24,296 bases of DNA from Candidatus Saccharimonadota bacterium (GTDB taxonomy: Archaea > Nanobdellota > Nanobdellia > Pacearchaeales > GW2011-AR1): positions 1 through 24,296 of the forward strand of contig JBEKXS010000003.1 of the NCBI GenBank assembly GCA_049511795.1, in the 5' to 3' direction. How positions within the stretch are numbered: the stretch's first letter is position 1; each line of letters opens with the position of its first letter. The translations under genes and the position numbers were made by a program. The notes below the pieces were generated by a model that was not told the DNA's origin, did no database searches, and saw only the letters and a list, made by a program, of their open reading frames with translations. Shown here in pieces: positions 1 to 24,296 of the stretch.

Positions 1-122
1 ACAAGATAGCCGAATATCGTAGAAAGAACAAAGACAAGATAGCCGAACAAAAAGCTGAATATTATAGAAAGAACAAAGACAAGATAGCTGAATATTTAGC
101 TGAATATTATAGAAAGAACAAA
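1..122. repeat. Terminal direct overlap; nt 1-122 are identical to nt 24175-24296 (circular closure or terminal redundancy)
   Basis: Base-by-base comparison of both ends. The overlap lies inside a coding tandem-repeat array, but unique flanks on both sides fit one continuous ORF. Confidence 0.9.
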
Positions 123-188
123 AGGCAGAGAATGTCAGAGAGATATTCAAAATTACTAAAAGGGGGTCTCAATTCCTCCCAAGCTTGA
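3..188 (+). CDS. 3' part of the KIAEY/YRKNKDKI repeat protein (continuation of 23943..24296 across the junction); ends ...RQRMSERYSKLLKGGLNSSQA*
   Basis: Open frame from the window edge to TGA at 186-188. The frame matches 23943+3n once the 24174-nt offset is applied. The last 9 codons are shared with the methyltransferase gene. Confidence 0.7.
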   Translation, partial: KIAEYRRKNKDKIAEQKAEYYRKNKDKIAEYLAEYYRKNKRQRMSERYSKLLKGGLNSSQA

Positions 189-219
189 AAGCATGGGTAT
201 CCTTGAGACGATTATATGA
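158..219 (+). repeat. 62-nt gene-boundary element, copy 1 (identical to 3443-3504); long imperfect hairpin
   Basis: Perfect 62/62 identity. Outer stem is GTCTCAA (166-172) with TTGAGAC (203-209). Inner stem is CCCAAGC with GCATGGG (one mismatch). The upstream TGA stop lies in the loop and the downstream ATG (216) is inside the repeat. Confidence 0.9.
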
Positions 220-2636: not shown

Positions 2637-2789
2637 ATGGGAGGATGGAAGAAACTGAAATTTCCAAGAAGATGCAAAGTATGCAACAAAGTATTAGGCA
2701 AACAGAACAAATCAGGAATCTGCTCTAATTGCTCTCTTGAAATTCGTCAAAAAAATCAACATGACATACTCCCATACCCTAAAGGGTAG
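2637..2789 (+). CDS. 50-aa zinc-ribbon protein (CKVC...CSNC)
   Basis: Manual translation gives MGGWKKLKFPRRCKVCNKVLGKQNKSGICSNCSLEIRQKNQHDILPYPKG*. Its 3' end runs into the 50-nt boundary element. Confidence 0.4.
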   Translation: MGGWKKLKFPRRCKVCNKVLGKQNKSGICSNCSLEIRQKNQHDILPYPKG

Positions 2790-2810
2790 GGTATCTTAAA
2801 GAAAATGGAA
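2761..2810 (+). repeat. 50-nt gene-boundary element, copy 1 (identical to 23899-23948) with a dyad-symmetric core
   Basis: Perfect 50/50 identity. Hairpin is ATACCCTA (2774-2781) with TAGGGTAT (2787-2794). An overlapping palindrome TACCCT-AA-AGGGTA spans 2775-2788. The element ends with ATGGAA, the first 2 codons of the downstream gene. Confidence 0.9.
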
Positions 2811-3473
2811 ACAAAAACAATAAAGATTTTGAATTTATATGCTGGAATTGGTGGAAATAGAAAACTATGGACAGGAGATATAGAAGTTACGGCAGTAGAG
2901 AATGTTCCAGAGATAGCTAAGATATACCAAGACTTTTTCCCTAATGATAAGGTAATAGTAACAGATGCACACCAATTTTTATTAGAACATTTTAAAGAAT
3001 TTGATTTTATATGGAGTTCTCCACCTTGTCCAAGTCATAGTAGGATAAATACTATGTTAGTAAATGGAAGAGGGTTTAAAGCAAAGTTTCCAGATATGAA
3101 ACTTTATGAAGAGATATTGTTTCTACAAGCATACTTTAAAGGGAAATGGATTGTTGAGAATGTTAGAAGTTTTTATACTCCTTTAATTAAACCACAAGAA
3201 AGAGGTAGACATTATTATTGGAGTAATTTTGAGATAGGATATTTAGGAAAAAGTAAGAAAGTTAGGAATGATAAAGGTTCAATTTTGAGTTTAAAAATGA
3301 AAGATAGAGAAATGGTTGTTAGTGATTTTAAAGATTATAAAGGGGATAAAAGGACTTTGATAAATAATTGTGTAGAACCTATTGTAGGATTATTAATATT
3401 TGAAATGGCTTTCAAGAAACCACAAAAAACTTTATTAGAACAAAAAGGGGGTCTCAATTCCTCCCAAGCTTGA
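2805..3473 (+). CDS. Compact DNA (cytosine-5) methyltransferase, 222 aa; no adjacent restriction endonuclease recognised
   Basis: Motif I LNLYAGIGGN; motif IV SSPPCPSHS (Pro-Cys); motif VI IVENV; motif VIII-like QERGRHYYW; motif X-like NNCVEPIVGLLIF. The target-recognition region is very short. Confidence 0.8.
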   Translation: METKTIKILNLYAGIGGNRKLWTGDIEVTAVENVPEIAKIYQDFFPNDKVIVTDAHQFLLEHFKEFDFIWSSPPCPSHSRINTMLVNGRGFKAKFPDMKLYEEILFLQAYFKGKWIVENVRSFYTPLIKPQERGRHYYWSNFEIGYLGKSKKVRNDKGSILSLKMKDREMVVSDFKDYKGDKRTLINNCVEPIVGLLIFEMAFKKPQKTLLEQKGGLNSSQA

Positions 3474-3504
3474 AAGCATGGGTATCCTTGAGACGATTAT
3501 ATGA
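3443..3504 (+). repeat. 62-nt gene-boundary element, copy 2 (identical to 158-219)
   Basis: Perfect identity. Contains the last 9 codons plus stop of the methyltransferase and the ATG (3501) of the next gene. Confidence 0.9.
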
Positions 3505-3806
3505 ACACAAAAGAATTCTTCACTAAGTGGAAGCAGGGAATAGAAGCAATAACACCTTACCAGCAAGTCAGGGGTCAGTTATTCAGCATAATCCCAATCT
3601 TCATAGGAATTATCATAGGAATAATAGTAACAATAAAATCTCATACTTGGTGGCTTGTCTTAATTTTAGGTGGCTCTTTAATCCTGACTTTCTTCCAATT
3701 TATAGGAATGCTGCAAAGATTTTTAAGGTTGAGAGTCCAAAGAGATATTATGAAGTCCATGCAGGATGTGATTCCAGGAGGTTCAAGTGAAACCAAGACT
3801 CCTTAG
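3501..3806 (+). CDS. Membrane protein, 101 aa, two predicted TM helices
   Basis: ORF track; two hydrophobic stretches (IIPIFIGIIIGIIVTI, WWLVLILGGSLILTFFQFIGM). Confidence 0.6.
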   Translation: MNTKEFFTKWKQGIEAITPYQQVRGQLFSIIPIFIGIIIGIIVTIKSHTWWLVLILGGSLILTFFQFIGMLQRFLRLRVQRDIMKSMQDVIPGGSSETKTP

Positions 3807-4006: not shown

Positions 4007-4525
4007 ATGGTAAATAATTGTTTATGGTGTGGAGAACCAATTTTAGAAGGAATAAATAGGGAATATCATCCAATTTGTGTTAAAAGGAAATATAATTTTA
4101 ATAATAGAAAAAAAGCATCAGAGTATTTCCAAAAGAACAAGGAGAAGATTTATTCAGTTAAGAGAATTTATAACATTAAAAATAAGGAAAAAATAGATGA
4201 AATAAAAAGAAAGTATAGGATAAAGAATAGGGAAATTCTAAATAAAAAGGCATTAAAACATTCTAAAAAAAATAGAGACAAAATAAATAAATATCATAAA
4301 GAATGGAAGAAAAATAACAAAAAGATAGTTAATGCAGAAAATCAGGCATCTATAAAAATTCAATTATTAGATTCTTGTCAAATTTGTGGAAGTAAAGAGA
4401 ATCTACAAAGACATCACTGGGATTATAACAGACCATTATTAGTTACTACTTTATGTAAAGATTGTCATAGAATTCAACATATAAAGAACTTTGAAAACAG
4501 TTTCTTTGGGAGGGTATCTTGTTAG
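4007..4525 (+). CDS. HNH endonuclease with a Lys-rich KNKEKI-type repeat region
   Basis: N-terminal CLWCGE...C. The central region has repeated (Y)xxKNKEKI / KNREIL / KNRDKI motifs. C-terminal CQICG...LQRHHWDYN...CKDCHRIQH fits an HNH/beta-beta-alpha-Me motif. Confidence 0.8.
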   Translation: MVNNCLWCGEPILEGINREYHPICVKRKYNFNNRKKASEYFQKNKEKIYSVKRIYNIKNKEKIDEIKRKYRIKNREILNKKALKHSKKNRDKINKYHKEWKKNNKKIVNAENQASIKIQLLDSCQICGSKENLQRHHWDYNRPLLVTTLCKDCHRIQHIKNFENSFFGRVSC

Positions 4526-6646: not shown

Positions 6647-6868
6647 ATGTTAGGAAATTTAATAACTGGGTTCTTGATTATTCTCGTTGGAGTAAATTTA
6701 GCCCCAACAGTTGCTAACCAGGTAGCTGCACAGACAAGCAATACAAACTTCACAAACGGCTCTTCTGCTGTTCTTAGTTTGGTTACATTGTTCTTTGTCC
6801 TTGCAGTCGCTGTAGCAGCAATGGATATAGCTGTCGTTGGACTCAGACAATCAGGACTTATAATTTAA
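6647..6868 (+). CDS. Major capsid protein candidate 1, fusellovirus VP1/VP3-like two-helix hydrophobic protein (73 aa)
   Basis: MLGNLITGFLIILVGVNLAPTVANQV...NFTNGSSAVLSLVTLFFVLAVAVAAMDIAVVGL. This matches the SSV1 VP1 pattern recalled from memory (..LIGIVLLPVIVSQV .. ATLLNLVPLFYILVLIIVPAVV). Confidence 0.7.
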   Translation: MLGNLITGFLIILVGVNLAPTVANQVAAQTSNTNFTNGSSAVLSLVTLFFVLAVAVAAMDIAVVGLRQSGLII

Positions 6869-6888: not shown

Positions 6889-7152
6889 ATGTTAGGAAAT
6901 TTAATTACAGGATTCTTGATTATCTTGGTTGGAGTGAATATAGCTCCAACAGTCGCATCACAAGTCCAGGTAGCAGTTTATCCATGGTCAAACGGAACAG
7001 GGCCAGGAGCAAACTTGACCCCAAGCGATAACTTCACAAACGGTTCAGGAGCAGTGCTTACACTTGTAACACTATTCTTCGTTTTGGCAGTTGCTGTTGC
7101 TGCGATGGATATTGCAGTAGTAGGCCTTAGACAATCAGGACTCGTCATATAA
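6889..7152 (+). CDS. Major capsid protein candidate 2 (paralog, 87 aa) with a longer inter-helix loop
   Basis: N- and C-terminal helices are nearly identical to 6647..6868. The loop carries a 14-aa insertion. Confidence 0.7.
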   Translation: MLGNLITGFLIILVGVNIAPTVASQVQVAVYPWSNGTGPGANLTPSDNFTNGSGAVLTLVTLFFVLAVAVAAMDIAVVGLRQSGLVI

Positions 7153-19884: not shown

Positions 19885-20213
19885 CAACCTATGAAGCAGT
19901 AGAAGAAGTATTGGAAGAGAACGAAAAGGCCAGAGATGACGATTTTCTCCTATGTGTTCATGTTTATCTCAAGCTCGGCTTCGCCCACAGAATCCCATTA
20001 GGCATAGTCATTCATTATGACAAGATAGAGTTTGCCCCTGCCTTTGAAACTATTACAAGATGCAGAAGACTGATACAAAATAGAGAGAAACGATTAAGAG
20101 CAACACCTGAAACAGAATTAAGAAGACTAAACAGGGAGATTGAACTGCATACATACTTCTCAAGCAAATCAACTAAATTAGATAGCTTTCCAGGAAGCTG
20201 GATGTTAGGATGA
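19881..20213 (+). CDS. Hypothetical 110-aa protein; its C-terminal 33 codons are duplicated at 21350-21450
   Basis: ORF track; ATGA overlaps; internal motif ITRCRRLIQNREKRLRATPE. Confidence 0.6.
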   Translation: MTTYEAVEEVLEENEKARDDDFLLCVHVYLKLGFAHRIPLGIVIHYDKIEFAPAFETITRCRRLIQNREKRLRATPETELRRLNREIELHTYFSSKSTKLDSFPGSWMLG

Positions 20214-20353
20214 CAGCACAAAAAGCTAAAGATACAGAATCGTTTTTTAGAGAAATACAATTAAGAGGAATGATAGCAAAGCAAAGTCCTTTTTATTGGA
20301 TAAGATATAAGATTTATAGGATAAAAGAATATCTATATTATTATTTAACATGA
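20210..20353 (+). CDS. Hypothetical 47-aa protein
   Basis: Manual; ATGA overlaps at both ends. Confidence 0.35.
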   Translation: MTAQKAKDTESFFREIQLRGMIAKQSPFYWIRYKIYRIKEYLYYYLT

Positions 20354-20425
20354 CACAAAAACAAACAAAACAAACAGAGGAGAGCAAAGAATGAAAACTA
20401 AAAAAGAAATACTAAAGATGACTGA
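20354..20425 (+). repeat. 72-nt perfect repeat, copy 1 (identical to 21585-21656), spanning a leader mini-ORF, the RBS and the first 11 codons of the downstream gene
   Basis: Base-by-base identity checked: CACAAAAACAAACAAAACAAACAGAGGAGAGCAAAGAATGAAAACTAAAAAAGAAATACTAAAGATGACTGA. Confidence 0.9.
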
Positions 20426-20948: not shown

Positions 20949-21374
20949 ATGCCAGAAGGAATAAAGATACGCGCTGTATCTAAGAAAGCTAAAAGGAAAA
21001 AGAAAAGATTAGTTAGACTAACCCTATTTTTGAGAAGATGGATGCCTCCTTTACATATGATTGAGCCATTTATGCTAATCCTTGCATTTGTAATTGTCAC
21101 ACCAACTCTTTTAGGAACTCCCTTTGCATGGCTCTTTGCTTTATGCGCCTTTGAAGTTGCAATGAGGGTTGTAACAAGTGATCTTGAAGAAATATTCAAA
21201 GATGAAATAAAAACAGAAGATATGATTGAAGAAAATAATATCCAAATCTCTCACCTGCAAAGCGATATAAAAAGATTGAGAAGAAAGATGAAAAGGCAGA
21301 AGAAGCTCAACAAACAATTAGAAAAACTGAAAGGAGGCTTCTCCAGAGGCAGAATTAAGAAGATTAAATCATGA
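20949..21374 (+). CDS. Basic N-terminus, TM and coiled-coil protein (141 aa)
   Basis: ORF track; hydrophobic central part; K/R/E-rich heptad-like C-terminus. Confidence 0.55.
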   Translation: MPEGIKIRAVSKKAKRKKKRLVRLTLFLRRWMPPLHMIEPFMLILAFVIVTPTLLGTPFAWLFALCAFEVAMRVVTSDLEEIFKDEIKTEDMIEENNIQISHLQSDIKRLRRKMKRQKKLNKQLEKLKGGFSRGRIKKIKS

Positions 21375-21450
21375 GGTTGAATTGCACACATATTTCTCAA
21401 GTAAATCTGCTCGGATAGACACATTTCCGAATAGCTGGATGAGTCCATGA
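21331..21450 (+). pseudogene. Start-less C-terminal fragment homologous to the end of 19881..20213 (KEASPEAELRRLNHEVELHTYFSSKSARIDTFPNSWMSP*)
   Basis: Ungapped alignment of 21350-21450 with 20113-20213. The frame opens after TGA at 21328-21330 and has no start codon. It is +1 relative to the overlapping ORF 20949..21374. Confidence 0.55.
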
Positions 21451-21581
21451 CACAAACAACTAACCAACCAAATCCCTATAAACAACTAAGAAAAGAAATC
21501 ATACAAATATATTATGAACTTGGAAAAACCTTAGAAAAAGTTGATAGGATATTAAAAAGATTACAGAACGAAACACAATGA
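21447..21581 (+). CDS. Hypothetical 44-aa protein
   Basis: Manual; ATGA overlaps at both ends. Confidence 0.35.
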   Translation: MTQTTNQPNPYKQLRKEIIQIYYELGKTLEKVDRILKRLQNETQ

Positions 21582-21584
21582 CAA

Positions 21585-21656
21585 CACAAAAACAAACAAA
21601 ACAAACAGAGGAGAGCAAAGAATGAAAACTAAAAAAGAAATACTAAAGATGACTGA
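21585..21656 (+). repeat. 72-nt perfect repeat, copy 2 (identical to 20354-20425)
   Basis: Base-by-base identity. Confidence 0.9.
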
Positions 21657-21858
21657 AAAAGAACTTCAAGATTATAAATGGAGTTCTGATTTAGATATTA
21701 AAGAAGAGAAGAAAGAAACTAACTCTGACTGCTCTGACTGCTTTAACTGCTCTAACTGCAGAAACATAAAAACATATTCGAAGTTTATGATATGCAATGT
21801 TCAGCTTACAGAAAAAGAATACAGAAAGAAGATGAAGGAGTTGAAGAATGAAAACTAA
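21622..21858 (+). CDS. Cys-rich 78-aa protein (SDCSDCFNCSNC), MKTKKEILKMT leader
   Basis: ORF track. Confidence 0.55.
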   Translation: MKTKKEILKMTEKELQDYKWSSDLDIKEEKKETNSDCSDCFNCSNCRNIKTYSKFMICNVQLTEKEYRKKMKELKNEN

Positions 21859-22252
21859 AATAACTGAAACAGAAACAGAATACATAGTTAACGGCGACTT
21901 GATACTTACAGAAGATTTCAAGATTTCAAAGCATCTCATAGTTCATGGAGATGTTGAAGGAAAAGACGGCGAGAGATTTAACATAAATGCACGGAACATA
22001 GATGCAGGGAACATAAATGCATGGAACATAGATGCAAGGAACATAGATGCAAGGAACATAAATGCATGGAACATAGATGCAAGGAACATAAATGCATTGG
22101 ACATAAATGCATGGAACATAGATGCATGGAACATAGATGCAAGGAACATAATCTGCGAAACTCGTGTTAAGAAAGATAAGAAATGCAAAACAATAGCGAG
22201 AATTTACATTAAAAATAGAAGCAAAATAAAGAGGAAAGAACATGACGACTGA
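21848..22252 (+). CDS. Pentapeptide-like repeat (beta-solenoid) protein, paralog 1 (134 aa)
   Basis: 11 consecutive 5-aa units (N/D)I(N/D)A(R/W/G/L). Fits a pentapeptide-repeat pattern with D/N at the i-1 position. Confidence 0.7.
   Translation: MKTKITETETEYIVNGDLILTEDFKISKHLIVHGDVEGKDGERFNINARNIDAGNINAWNIDARNIDARNINAWNIDARNINALDINAWNIDAWNIDARNIICETRVKKDKKCKTIARIYIKNRSKIKRKEHDD
21980..22144 (+). repeat. In-frame 15-bp tandem repeat, 11 copies (AACATAGATGCAAGG type)
   Basis: Read directly; the period of 15 matches the 5-aa protein repeat. Confidence 0.9.
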
Positions 22253-22652
22253 AACAGAAACAGAATACATAGTTAACGGCGACTTGATACTTGAAGAAGA
22301 TTTCAAGATTTCGAAAAATCTCATAGTTCACGGAAATATTAAAGGGAAAGACGGCGAGAGATTTAACATAGATGCATTAGACATAGATGCATGGAACATA
22401 GATGCAAGGAACATAGATGCAAGGAACATAAATGCAAGGAACATAAATGCAGGGGACATAAATGCATGGGACATAAATGCAGGGGACATAGATGCAGGGG
22501 ACATAAATGCAGGGAACATAAATGCATGGAACATAAATGCATTAGACATAATCTGCGAAACTCGTATTAAGAAGTTAAAGGAATGCAAAACAAAGGCGAG
22601 AATTTACATTAAAAATAAAAACAAAATAGAGAGGAAAGAATATGACGACTAA
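22242..22652 (+). CDS. Pentapeptide-like repeat (beta-solenoid) protein, paralog 2 (136 aa)
   Basis: 12 consecutive 5-aa units. N- and C-terminal flanks are highly similar to 21848..22252. Confidence 0.7.
   Translation: MTTETETEYIVNGDLILEEDFKISKNLIVHGNIKGKDGERFNIDALDIDAWNIDARNIDARNINARNINAGDINAWDINAGDIDAGDINAGNINAWNINALDIICETRIKKLKECKTKARIYIKNKNKIERKEYDD
22365..22544 (+). repeat. In-frame 15-bp tandem repeat, 12 copies
   Basis: Read directly. Confidence 0.9.
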
Positions 22653-23623: not shown

Positions 23624-23778
23624 TTAGAACTGAAATTTGTGGGTGTAAATATCTTTTGGATATAGATGGAACTAAAACTTTCGTAGCATTTTGTAAAGAA
23701 CATTCTTTTCTTAATTTTGGAAGGCATCCAAATCAAATAAAACCAATTGTAAAATCGGGGGAAAAATTAAGCAAATGA
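23620..23778 (+). CDS. 52-aa Cys-containing protein (MIRTEICGCK...), N-terminus similar to 22642 ORF
   Basis: Manual; ATGA overlaps at both ends. Confidence 0.4.
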   Translation: MIRTEICGCKYLLDIDGTKTFVAFCKEHSFLNFGRHPNQIKPIVKSGEKLSK

Positions 23779-23897
23779 CACAAAAACAAATAAAACAAGA
23801 ACTTAAGAGAAAGGTTGAAGAAAGAGATTGGATAATAATAGCATTAGTAATATTATGGTTTTTAACTTTAGCTTTTTTTAATATGGGTTTATGGTAA
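23775..23897 (+). CDS. 40-aa single-pass membrane protein with MTQKQ leader
   Basis: Manual translation gives MTQKQIKQELKRKVEERDWIIIALVILWFLTLAFFNMGLW*. The leader is identical at nt level to the 216 ORF start. Confidence 0.45.
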   Translation: MTQKQIKQELKRKVEERDWIIIALVILWFLTLAFFNMGLW

Positions 23898-23898
23898 A

Positions 23899-23948
23899 AT
23901 GACATACTCCCATACCCTAAAGGGTAGGGTATCTTAAAGAAAATGGAA
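23899..23948 (+). repeat. 50-nt gene-boundary element, copy 2 (identical to 2761-2810)
   Basis: Perfect identity; hairpin at 23912-23932. Confidence 0.9.
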
Positions 23949-24296
23949 CTAAAGCAATTTATAAAACAAATACCAACACCAGAAGAAACACTTGTTGATT
24001 ATGATAAAAAGATAGCCGAACAAAAAGCTGAATATTATAGAAAGAACAAAGACAAGATAGCCGAATATCGTAGAAAGAACAAAGACAAGATAGCCGAATA
24101 TTTAGCTGAATATTATAGAAAGAACAAAGACAAGATAGCCGAATATTTAGCTGAATATTATAGAAAGAACAAAGACAAGATAGCCGAATATCGTAGAAAG
24201 AACAAAGACAAGATAGCCGAACAAAAAGCTGAATATTATAGAAAGAACAAAGACAAGATAGCTGAATATTTAGCTGAATATTATAGAAAGAACAAA
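23943..24296 (+). CDS. 5' part of the KIAEY/YRKNKDKI repeat protein (no stop in window; continues at nt 3..188 if circular)
   Basis: MELKQFIKQIPTPEETLVDYDK, followed by units KIAEQKAEYYRKNKD, KIAEYRRKNKD and KIAEYLAEYYRKNKD. There are 118 complete codons to the window edge. Confidence 0.7.
   Translation, partial: MELKQFIKQIPTPEETLVDYDKKIAEQKAEYYRKNKDKIAEYRRKNKDKIAEYLAEYYRKNKDKIAEYLAEYYRKNKDKIAEYRRKNKDKIAEQKAEYYRKNKDKIAEYLAEYYRKNK
24008..24296 (+). repeat. Coding tandem-repeat array of 33- and 45-bp units (continues into nt 1-125)
   Basis: Unit order read directly: 45a, 33b, 45c, 45c, 33b, 45a, 45c. Confidence 0.85.
24175..24296. repeat. Terminal direct overlap (identical to nt 1-122)
   Basis: See the first feature. 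Confidence 0.9.

Follow-up and report, generated by a model that had tools for sequence, protein, structure and literature searches.

The DNA considered here, 24,296 nt of contig JBEKXS010000003.1 (GCA_049511795.1, plus strand) and referred to throughout as the window, contains two gene cassettes, A and B, in each of which a single open reading frame (ORF) is bracketed by a short 5' element and a short 3' element. The ORF of cassette A (cargo A) matches Pfam PF00145 (E = 2e-7) and phrog_363, a DNA methyltransferase family (E = 1e-12), while that of cassette B (cargo B), which starts at 23943, encodes a 139-aa protein of YRKNKDKIAE repeats that matches phrog_17714, a family of unknown function (E = 6e-16). 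An earlier note on this DNA had claimed that the two unrelated genes share two pairs of identical boundaries, and this has been borne out: 23899-23948 equals 2761-2810 at 50 of 50 positions, 158-219 equals 3443-3504 at 62 of 62, and the edges are sharp, with 0 bases of extension on either side of either pair. The shared ME start of the two proteins, their shared KGGLNSSQA end, and the presence of the ATG of the next gene within the 3' element have likewise been verified in the sequence. The motif CTCCCA-N(8-20)-GGGTATC is seen four times in the window, against 0.00 expected from 100 shuffles; one extra GGGTATC, at 4512-4518 within an HNH ORF (4007-4525), has no hairpin partner and is probably a chance occurrence. 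A search of the window with Rfam at gathering thresholds gave no family match, and ARAGORN reported neither a tRNA nor an att-like site.

Since the first and last 122 nt of the window are the same (1-122 = 24175-24296), the window represents a circular molecule of 24,174 bp. Consequently, the repeat ORF that begins at 23943 crosses the junction, over which it stays in frame, and stops at 185-187. The order of 5' element, ORF, and 3' element is the canonical one over this junction, which, as far as the sequence goes, supports circular closure. The terminal overlap (1-122; repeat region 23974-24296) sits within the 33/45-nt tandem repeat that encodes the YRKNKDKIAE units of cargo B, and the number of repeats in cargo B is thus uncertain. 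In principle, perfect repeats of 50-62 nt could also have let the assembler exchange cargo between the two sites. A further lysine-rich tandem-repeat ORF (KQYQKQYKKTDKYKQ units), reminiscent of cargo B, lies at 360-563 of locus L121, directly upstream of the cassette there; L-numbers denote loci collected by scans of public collections with short cores of both elements, apart from L151, the IS608 copy introduced below. Counts of cassettes, cargo, and ends given below refer to a set of about 140 such loci.

Features of cassettes A and B, with the corresponding ends of IS608 (RE, right end; LE, left end; hairpins in square brackets)
Feature	Position	Strand	Description
Cassette A	2761..3500	- (active strand)	tnpA-less IS608-like element, 740 bp, with two conserved ends matching IS608 RE and LE
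Right-end cleavage tetranucleotide (C_R), last 4 nt of element A	2761..2764	-	TCAT on minus strand, ATGA on plus strand
RE of element A	2765..2795	-	guide GATA 2792-2795, hairpin 2771-2791, spacer AGTATG 2765-2770
RE hairpin of element A	2771-2791	-	CCCTACCC-TTTA-GGGTA(T)GGG
RE with cleavage site, window	2761-2795	-	GATA-[ CCCTACCC TTTA GGGTA(T)GGG ]-AGTATG-TCAT
RE with cleavage site, IS608			GAAT-[ CCCCTAGC TTT AGCTA(T)GGGG ]-AGTATG-TCAA
RE of IS608 as aligned to RE of element A			GAAT-CCCCTAGCTTTAGCTA(T)GGGG-AGTATG-TCAA
Cargo A	2805..3473	+	short C5 cytosine DNA methyltransferase, 222 aa
LE of element A	3443..3500	-	spacer ATAATC; outer-stem arms GTCTCAA 3488-3494 and TTGAGAC 3451-3457
LE guide and hairpin of element A	3483-3486, 3463-3482	-	GATA; CCCATGC-TTTCAA-GCTTGGG, then AGGAA
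LE with target, window	3451-3504	-	TCAT, ATAATC-GTCTCAA-GGATA-[CCCATGC TTTCAA GCTTGGG]-AGGAA-TTGAGAC
LE with target, IS608			TTAC, CCAAAACTAA-CGCCTT-AAAG-[hairpin]-ATAC-AAGGCG
Target (left cleavage) tetranucleotide, cassette A	3501..3504	-	TCAT; on plus strand, ATG+A start of ORF 3501-3806
Cassette B, first part	23899..24174	-	RE 23899-23933: ATGA 23899-23902, hairpin 23909-23929, guide 23930-23933
Cassette B, second part	1..215	-	end of cargo B (stop 185-187) and LE 158-215
LE of cassette B	158-215	-	hairpin 178-197, guide 198-201, outer stem 166-172 with 203-209
Target tetranucleotide, cassette B	216..219	-	TCAT; on plus strand, ATG+A start of ORF 216-407

When the two elements are read on the minus strand, they resemble the ends of the insertion sequence IS608, for which a real copy on the H. 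pylori plasmid pUM157 (L151) has served as the reference. In IS608, the left-hand cut is made at TTAC, which is not part of the element and precedes the hairpin foot by 19 nt; the right-hand cut is made at TCAA, which belongs to the element and follows its hairpin foot by 10 nt; the guides, AAAG and GAAT, lie directly 5' of each hairpin foot (PMC3201880, PMC5934647), and A+16 pairs with T-3 and A+17 with T-4 (PMC5934647, PMC3201880). In the window, the 5' element corresponds to RE: GATA is followed by an imperfect hairpin, in which one T is extrahelical, and then by AGTATG and a terminal TCAT. The 3' element corresponds to LE: a flanking TCAT and a spacer of 14-17 nt lead to GATA and an imperfect hairpin, and this guide and hairpin are surrounded by an outer stem. 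Several of these likenesses are exact. The AGTATG spacer of RE is identical in IS608 and the window; the hairpins are subterminal and imperfect at both ends, with a bulged base that is T on the minus strand and occupies the same position as in the IS608 hairpins; and an outer stem surrounds the guide and hairpin of LE in both systems, as seen in DNA folds and in the alignment. As DNA, the LE of element A folds at -10 kcal/mol (z = -2.9), and the last nine codons and the stop of cargo A fall within its hairpin. The distances from cleavage site to hairpin foot agree as well. The RE cut lies 10 nt from the foot (a 6-nt spacer plus 4 nt), the same as for TCAA in IS608 (PMC3201880), and the LE cut lies about 19 nt from the foot in both, with 18 nt in 110 cassette copies, 21 nt in 17, and 20 nt in the L151 copy of IS608.

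On the minus strand, GATA precedes both hairpins, and TCAT is both the left flank and the right terminus. Thus, each system has a 4-nt guide 5' of the foot that would pair with the cleavage site (GAAT/TCAA and AAAG/TTAC in IS608, GATA/TCAT here). From the published IS608 sequences, we infer a guide/cleavage rule (G1:C2, G2:C1, G4:C4) that fits both IS608 ends, and GATA with TCAT would form all three of these canonical pairs. A guide on the sense strand was considered and rejected, since TACT 5' of the hairpin breaks the IS608 rule and the cleavage site would be just 2 nt from the guide; the conflict is resolved when the opposite strand is read instead. Finally, as with IS608, the cassettes are inserted 3' of a fixed tetranucleotide and have no inverted repeats. 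Judged at the level of sequence, then, the ends agree with the IS200/IS605 family in every feature that is testable there.

No Y1_Tnp homologue (tnpA) was found in the window by tblastn. Both window cassettes are therefore non-autonomous and would need TnpA in trans. Among their relatives, the same pair of ends encloses a Y1_Tnp gene in L021, L042, L043, L082, L103, and L109 (best Pfam E = 1e-34), and in L042 and L109, tnpA starts about 10 nt past the 5' element. By tblastn, tnpA is present in 13-15 loci, between the ends or beside them, and its orientation is always that of the ends. The TnpA of these autonomous relatives is a Y1 HUH transposase, as is that of IS608; compared with sequences in the PDB, it matches Sulfolobus 2ec2 (2.6e-28), IS608 TnpA 2a6m (8.6e-13), and ISDra2 2xm3 (1.7e-10), and its HUH motif and catalytic-Tyr region align with the sequences of the Sulfolobus and IS608 structures. 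A sequence-identical tnpA-bearing element is found in L021 and L022, contigs that have been binned with Paceibacterota, a bacterial lineage of the candidate phyla radiation, and with Methylococcales. These contigs (short, of low coverage, and 30% GC) are probably mis-binned viral or DPANN DNA.

The junctions are exact. Insertion is directly 5' of ATGA, typically a start codon plus A, and the element has an ATGA of its own at the other end; in each window element, this ATGA opens a 12-codon mini-ORF (MTYSHTLKGRVS). In ends of the 5' type, ATG lies at a fixed offset in 72 of 74, and the copies listed read ATGA or, rarely, GTGA. The 3' ends are followed by ATGA in 134 of 140, and the distance from GGGTATC to this ATGA is 18 nt in 110 copies and 21 nt in 17. 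When occupied sites are compared with empty ones (L103 with L006, L008 with the window and L123, and L121 with L123), the sequences break exactly at ATGA. In L103, a tnpA-bearing unit splits a methyltransferase ORF, and removal of the unit plus one ATGA restores both the frame and the length seen in L006 (..FRENEIQLIIPNRRINF in L103 versus ..YRKYGISLIIPNKRFNF in L006). In L008, the cassette abuts ATGAAAACTAAAAAAG, exactly at the ATGA of the gene, and the homologues of this gene, at 20391 and 21622 of the window and in L123, are uninterrupted upstream; by this sequence comparison, the two window genes are empty sites of the L008 insertion. The right flank of the occupied L121 shares 99% identity with the empty L123 once ATGA is reached; ahead of that point, the two sequences are unrelated. 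Head-to-tail cassettes, found in L073, L047, and L094, have one common ATGA, as expected because the right terminus equals the target. In sequence, a 4-bp duplication of ATGA and a duplication-free insertion look alike. The idea that the 3' element supplies the start codon of the next gene needs revision: at 3501-3504 and 216-219, ATGA more plausibly represents the native target, and the copies that belong to the elements are those at 2761-2764 and 23899-23902.

The stems also show covariation. In the hairpin of the 5' element (alignment A2), 91% of cells are paired and 5 of 8 pairs are compensatory, a score reached by 0 of 500 shuffles; in the inner and outer helices of the 3' element (alignment A4), compensatory changes are seen at 10 of 14 pairs, and none of the measures is reached by a single one of 500 shuffles. 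Mismatches in the stems, when read on the sense strand, are A.C far more often than G.T (17 versus 4 in the 5' element and 32 versus 1 in the inner helix of the 3' element). Because A.C on the sense strand is a G.T wobble on the antisense strand, folding of the antisense DNA is favored over folding of mRNA. The asymmetry thus appears to point to a folded antisense DNA strand.

Both elements bracket single genes across about 140 contigs, which are of low GC and of viral, metagenomic, or DPANN metagenome-assembled genome (MAG) origin. In pattern scans, the 5' element was found in IMG/VR contigs and the 3' element in 11 IMG/VR contigs. The 3' element also occurs in low-GC MAG contigs labelled Woesearchaeota, Nanoarchaeota, or "archaeon" (high-GC hits of the MAG scan were discarded as chance matches) and in at least 119 metagenome contigs, about 117 of which are at 25-40% GC, including some from 0.1-µm groundwater fractions. 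A tabulation of what lies between the elements in these related genomes yields at least 69 complete units with diverse cargo, methyltransferases foremost. Most units hold exactly one ORF, which starts 6-18 nt past the 5' core (usually with ATGGAA) and has its stop within the 3' element or at its edge. Among the 75 cargo ORFs of at least 60 aa that were compared with Pfam, at least 30 encode DNA methyltransferases: N6_N4_Mtase was matched by 11, C5 DNA_methylase by 10, the D12 class of N6 methyltransferases by 5, MT-A70 by 2, and Dam by 1, and matches to general methyltransferase families probably overlap on the same proteins. Homologues of cargo A itself are the cargo of other cassettes (n=7). 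Y1_Tnp, the IS200-like transposase, accounts for 6 of the 75, a protein like the TATA-binding protein (TBP) for 2, and phosphoadenosine phosphosulfate (PAPS) reductase for 1; the rest include many small proteins with no Pfam match. The TBP-like cargo (L040:454-801 and L066:748-1101) is a single-repeat protein (Pfam TBP, 1.8e-7), the PAPS-reductase-family cargo lies at L109:2287-3258, and the cargo at L011:2580-3476, of 299 aa and with no Pfam match, has a CxxxCxxC motif that suggests a radical-SAM enzyme. What this system would move between viruses of the tiny DPANN archaea is mostly DNA methyltransferases.

Taken together, these results have led to the hypothesis that the boundary pairs are the ends of small transposons of the IS200/IS605 family (IS608-like), in which the transposase has been replaced by one passenger gene. 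The probability of this reading is put at roughly 0.87, given the anatomy of the ends and their homology to those of IS608, the TnpA genes of related loci, the exactness of the junctions, the covarying stems, and the census of cargo. In this model, which follows IS608, a Y1 HUH TnpA encoded by autonomous relatives on other contigs would be supplied in trans, would bind the hairpins in single-stranded DNA, and would locate the TCAT cleavage sites through pairing with GATA. The strand would then be excised as a single-stranded circle and reinserted 3' of another TCAT. On the coding strand, the result would be an element that lands directly 5' of an ATGA that is usually a start codon plus A and often a stop/start overlap. 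Precise excision of cassette A would be expected to leave the joint ...AAAAATCAAC-ATGA-ACACAAAAGAATTC, and that of cassette B ...TTATGGTAAA-ATGA-CACAAAAACAAATA; in the predicted circle, RE would meet LE (plus strand) with ...GAGACGATTAT joined directly to ATGACATACTCCC, a junction that tandem cassettes would also yield.

Such landings need not disrupt expression. LE has stops in all three frames (a frequent ACTAAACTAAA motif, a TAA/TGA in the loop giving ..SSQA, and a terminal TGA giving ..IPPKPKVLGILPNFI), and in 81 of 140 copies, the outer stem is closely preceded by GGAG or GAGG. The three-frame stops, the GGAGG outside the outer stem, and the conserved ATGGAA start would render most intergenic insertions harmless, and they may be adaptations by which densely packed operons can still be translated once an element has inserted.

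Several points weigh against the transposon hypothesis. There is no tnpA in the window, so the mobility of both copies there is presumed. The cassette genes run from RE to LE, opposite the active strand, which differs from IS608. The IS608 pairing rule has been carried over by analogy, and the rare variants of the flank (GTGA) and of the guide show no clear covariation. The asymmetry between A.C and G.T mismatches could stem in part from mutation bias. Furthermore, chimeric ends (e.g., in L143, L117, L042, and L098) show that ordinary recombination in the hairpin core also shuffles the cassettes, so that transposition is not alone in doing so.

This last point bears on how cargo is exchanged. 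Both window cassettes belong to a rare LE subtype, with a GTCTCAA/TTGAGAC outer stem, and are identical there at 62 of 62 positions, yet hold unrelated cargo; the window methyltransferase has a homologue of 59% identity in L121 that is flanked by different end subtypes. Chimeric ends have been observed in L136 and in L034, L077, L143, L117, L126, L042, L060, L098, and L124. In L034, the left half of a 3' element (LE) is joined to the right half of a 5' element (RE); in L077, the left half of a 5' element (RE) is fused directly to a 3' element (LE), giving an almost empty cassette; and in some chimeric LEs, the two halves of the outer stem come from different subtypes. Recombination within the hairpin core therefore reshuffles ends and cargo, beside transposition. 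Such observations would be accounted for if the boundaries were regulatory stem-loops, terminators or promoters like the promoter early stem-loops (PeSLs) of T4-type phages, between which genes are swapped by homologous recombination alone in co-infecting viruses. The chimeric 3' elements and 3'/5' hybrids (all of the loci just named other than L136) are what recombination in the core would produce, as is the association of one cargo family with different end subtypes in the window and L121. However, this explanation leaves several facts unaccounted for, namely that the ends match those of IS608 feature by feature, that GATA can pair with TCAT, that each border has an invariant ATGA, that TnpA is encoded between ends of the same kind, and that one unit, in L103, lies within a coding sequence. 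It is consequently regarded as improbable. Recombination is better seen as a second process that acts on transposon ends. Of what the earlier note had proposed, the view that the boundaries define mobile single-gene cassettes was right, and interiors are indeed exchanged, with cargo and boundaries reassorting as in the 59%-identical L121 homologue. The boundaries are, however, not fixed elements of a PeSL or integron kind but IS608-like ends on the strand opposite the genes.

Another explanation, with slightly less in its favor, locates the function of the stems in mRNA. The upstream ORF would stop in the loop, and folding of the sense strand would bring the GGAGG 5' of the hairpin beside the next AUG, so that translation of the two genes is coupled; the elements would then owe their conservation to this role in RNA. 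The three-frame stops in LE (ACTAAACTAAA, ..SSQA*, ..IPPKPKVLGILPNFI*) and the GGAG or GAGG that 81 of 140 copies have ahead of the outer stem are compatible with this idea, as is a GGTGA resembling a Shine-Dalgarno (SD) sequence in the 3' arm of the outer stem in L018 and L010. However, the sense-strand mismatches are mostly A.C, which is unfavorable in mRNA; bacterial IS608 has the same anatomy, which there functions as a substrate made of DNA; and Rfam gave no match. The translational features are most simply explained as secondary, acquired by a transposon whose landing sites are gene starts. A related candidate, a switch of SD, hairpin, and AUG with the anti-SD CCUCC, was demoted after the excess of A.C on the sense strand and the match to IS608 were seen, and a bulge-helix-bulge intron or processing stem was dropped because pairing of the 5' with the 3' element amounts to only 6 bp (by eye).

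The weakest alternative, and a very improbable one, takes the hairpin cores as imperfect palindromes of double-stranded DNA with a central AA that serve a serine recombinase or an integron-like integrase and, as direct repeats, allow excision: a Resolvase-family gene (8e-35) does lie about 165 nt upstream of cassette A, a homologue begins right after the 3' element in L135, and the core may resemble hix/gix-type sites, but homologues are present in only 3 of the roughly 140 loci, no integrase was noticed among the cargo or in those loci that were read (with no systematic scan of their flanks), and the compensatory changes in the stems favor a folded single strand over double-stranded half-sites.

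The recombinase gene in question, a small serine recombinase at 2054-2596 (Pfam Resolvase, E = 8e-35), belongs to a genome that, from its sequence, looks like that of a spindle-shaped archaeal virus; in L135, where the recombinase homologue begins directly after the 3' element, its start codon is the cassette target. Besides this recombinase, the window codes for several HNH or Vsr-type nucleases and for large proteins rich in Asn-X-Ser/Thr, and nearly all of its genes are on one strand. Two small hydrophobic proteins at 6647-6868 and 6889-7152, of which a homologous pair is found in L050, seem from a reading of their translations to resemble the major capsid protein of spindle-shaped viruses. 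L002, by a similar reading, is a contig of a head-tailed virus, with a portal-like ORF and an HK97-type-capsid-like ORF. The elements would therefore cross virus types. A search of IMG/VR with the gene flanking cassette A gave no close relative of the window, and blastn of INPHARED for such relatives gave methyltransferase fragments only.

Other repeats are present in the window. The HNH endonuclease ORF at 4007-4525 has an N-terminal half of Y(R/Q)KNK(D/E)KI repeats of the same kind as those in cargo B, and both proteins touch phrog_17714. A perfect 73-nt repeat (20353-20425 and 21584-21656) spans the upstream sequence and the opening codons (MKTKKEILKMT) of two genes that are divergent elsewhere; it belongs to a duplicated module of about 1.2 kb that also includes 20106-20215 and 21343-21452. 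A near-identical start, ATGACACAAAAACAAA... (MTQKQ...), is found in four small genes (216-257, 20350-20391, 21581-21622, and 23775-23816), two of which flank cassette B; the four may be paralogous small membrane proteins or may share a conserved start context. The largest direct-repeat family of the window lies in ORFs 21848-22252 and 22242-22652, adjacent paralogues of 15-nt (pentapeptide) repeats that read NIDAR/NINAW/DINAG.

A broader hypothesis, for which the odds seem somewhat short of even, is that an IS608-like lineage has evolved into a dedicated system for the delivery of gene cassettes among viruses of DPANN archaea. The cassettes would be tiny tnpA-less transposons of one gene each, mainly for ready-to-translate anti-restriction DNA methyltransferases, with TBP-like, PAPS-reductase-like, and unknown proteins as further cargo; they would home to ATGA start codons and leave operons intact, since they bring built-in stops in three frames and a new ribosome-binding site in place of the old one. 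They would also form head-to-tail stacks and exchange cargo through recombination in their hairpin cores, and the whole would be an analogue of integrons built on HUH transposition. IS200/IS605 elements are usually seen as minimal insertion sequences with only tnpA, tnpB, or iscB; here, their machinery apparently serves as a vehicle for single passenger genes across unrelated virus types (spindle-shaped for the window, head-tailed for L002). The model offers a concrete mechanism for the fast turnover of methyltransferases and accessory genes in the poorly known viruses of DPANN archaea, and the methyltransferase cargo might shield these viruses from host restriction. In addition, the cassettes represent a natural case of start-codon-targeted, operon-compatible insertion, and their short DNA signature can be used to search metagenomes for such viruses and their mobile cargo. 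The GATA/TCAT guide/target logic could be reprogrammed, as that of IS608 reportedly has been already. The earlier note was aware of no description of the arrangement for spindle-shaped archaeal viruses, and full-text searches of the literature gave none for archaeal viruses, which is not proof of absence.

Comparison with other systems suggests where the cassettes belong. The PeSLs of T4-type phages are similar in that short, conserved stem-loops flank variable accessory genes and promote shuffling among related viruses. However, PeSLs are transcription signals that serve as recombination homology, with no transposase, target tetranucleotide, or guide/cleavage logic; the early sigma-70 promoter that defines them is not applicable to a genome resembling that of an archaeal virus, and no promoter scan was made. 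Integron cassettes share with those described here single promoter-less ORFs, folded single-stranded recombination sites, arrays, and very diverse cargo, but the present cassettes have two unlike ends and an HUH transposase, with no R and L boxes of attI/attC and no platform promoter. No tyrosine integrase (IntI) was found among the scanned window proteins or the cargo, the flanks of the loci not having been searched systematically. Palindrome-associated transposable elements (PATEs), and the repetitive extragenic palindromes (REPs) and bacterial interspersed mosaic elements (BIMEs) associated with the RAYT transposase TnpA-REP, are closer, since they too are short hairpin elements without a transposase of their own that are thought to be mobilized in trans by a Y1 enzyme. 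To our knowledge, PATEs, REPs, and BIMEs are intergenic repeats of cellular genomes with no protein-coding cargo; each cassette, in contrast, brings one complete, presumably expressed gene. The known part of the present system is thus very probably its mechanism, IS200/IS605 transposition rather than exchange of a PeSL or integron kind. Relative to IS608, the window copies lack both tnpA and tnpB and carry a passenger gene in their place, the left target equals the right terminus (TCAT), so that head-to-tail stacking is possible, the target falls on ATGA start codons, and the hosts are viruses of DPANN archaea. What distinguishes the cassettes from the rest of the IS200/IS605 family is therefore a passenger-only format of one gene, inverted gene orientation, identical left and right tetranucleotides, a start-codon target, and DPANN-virus hosts.

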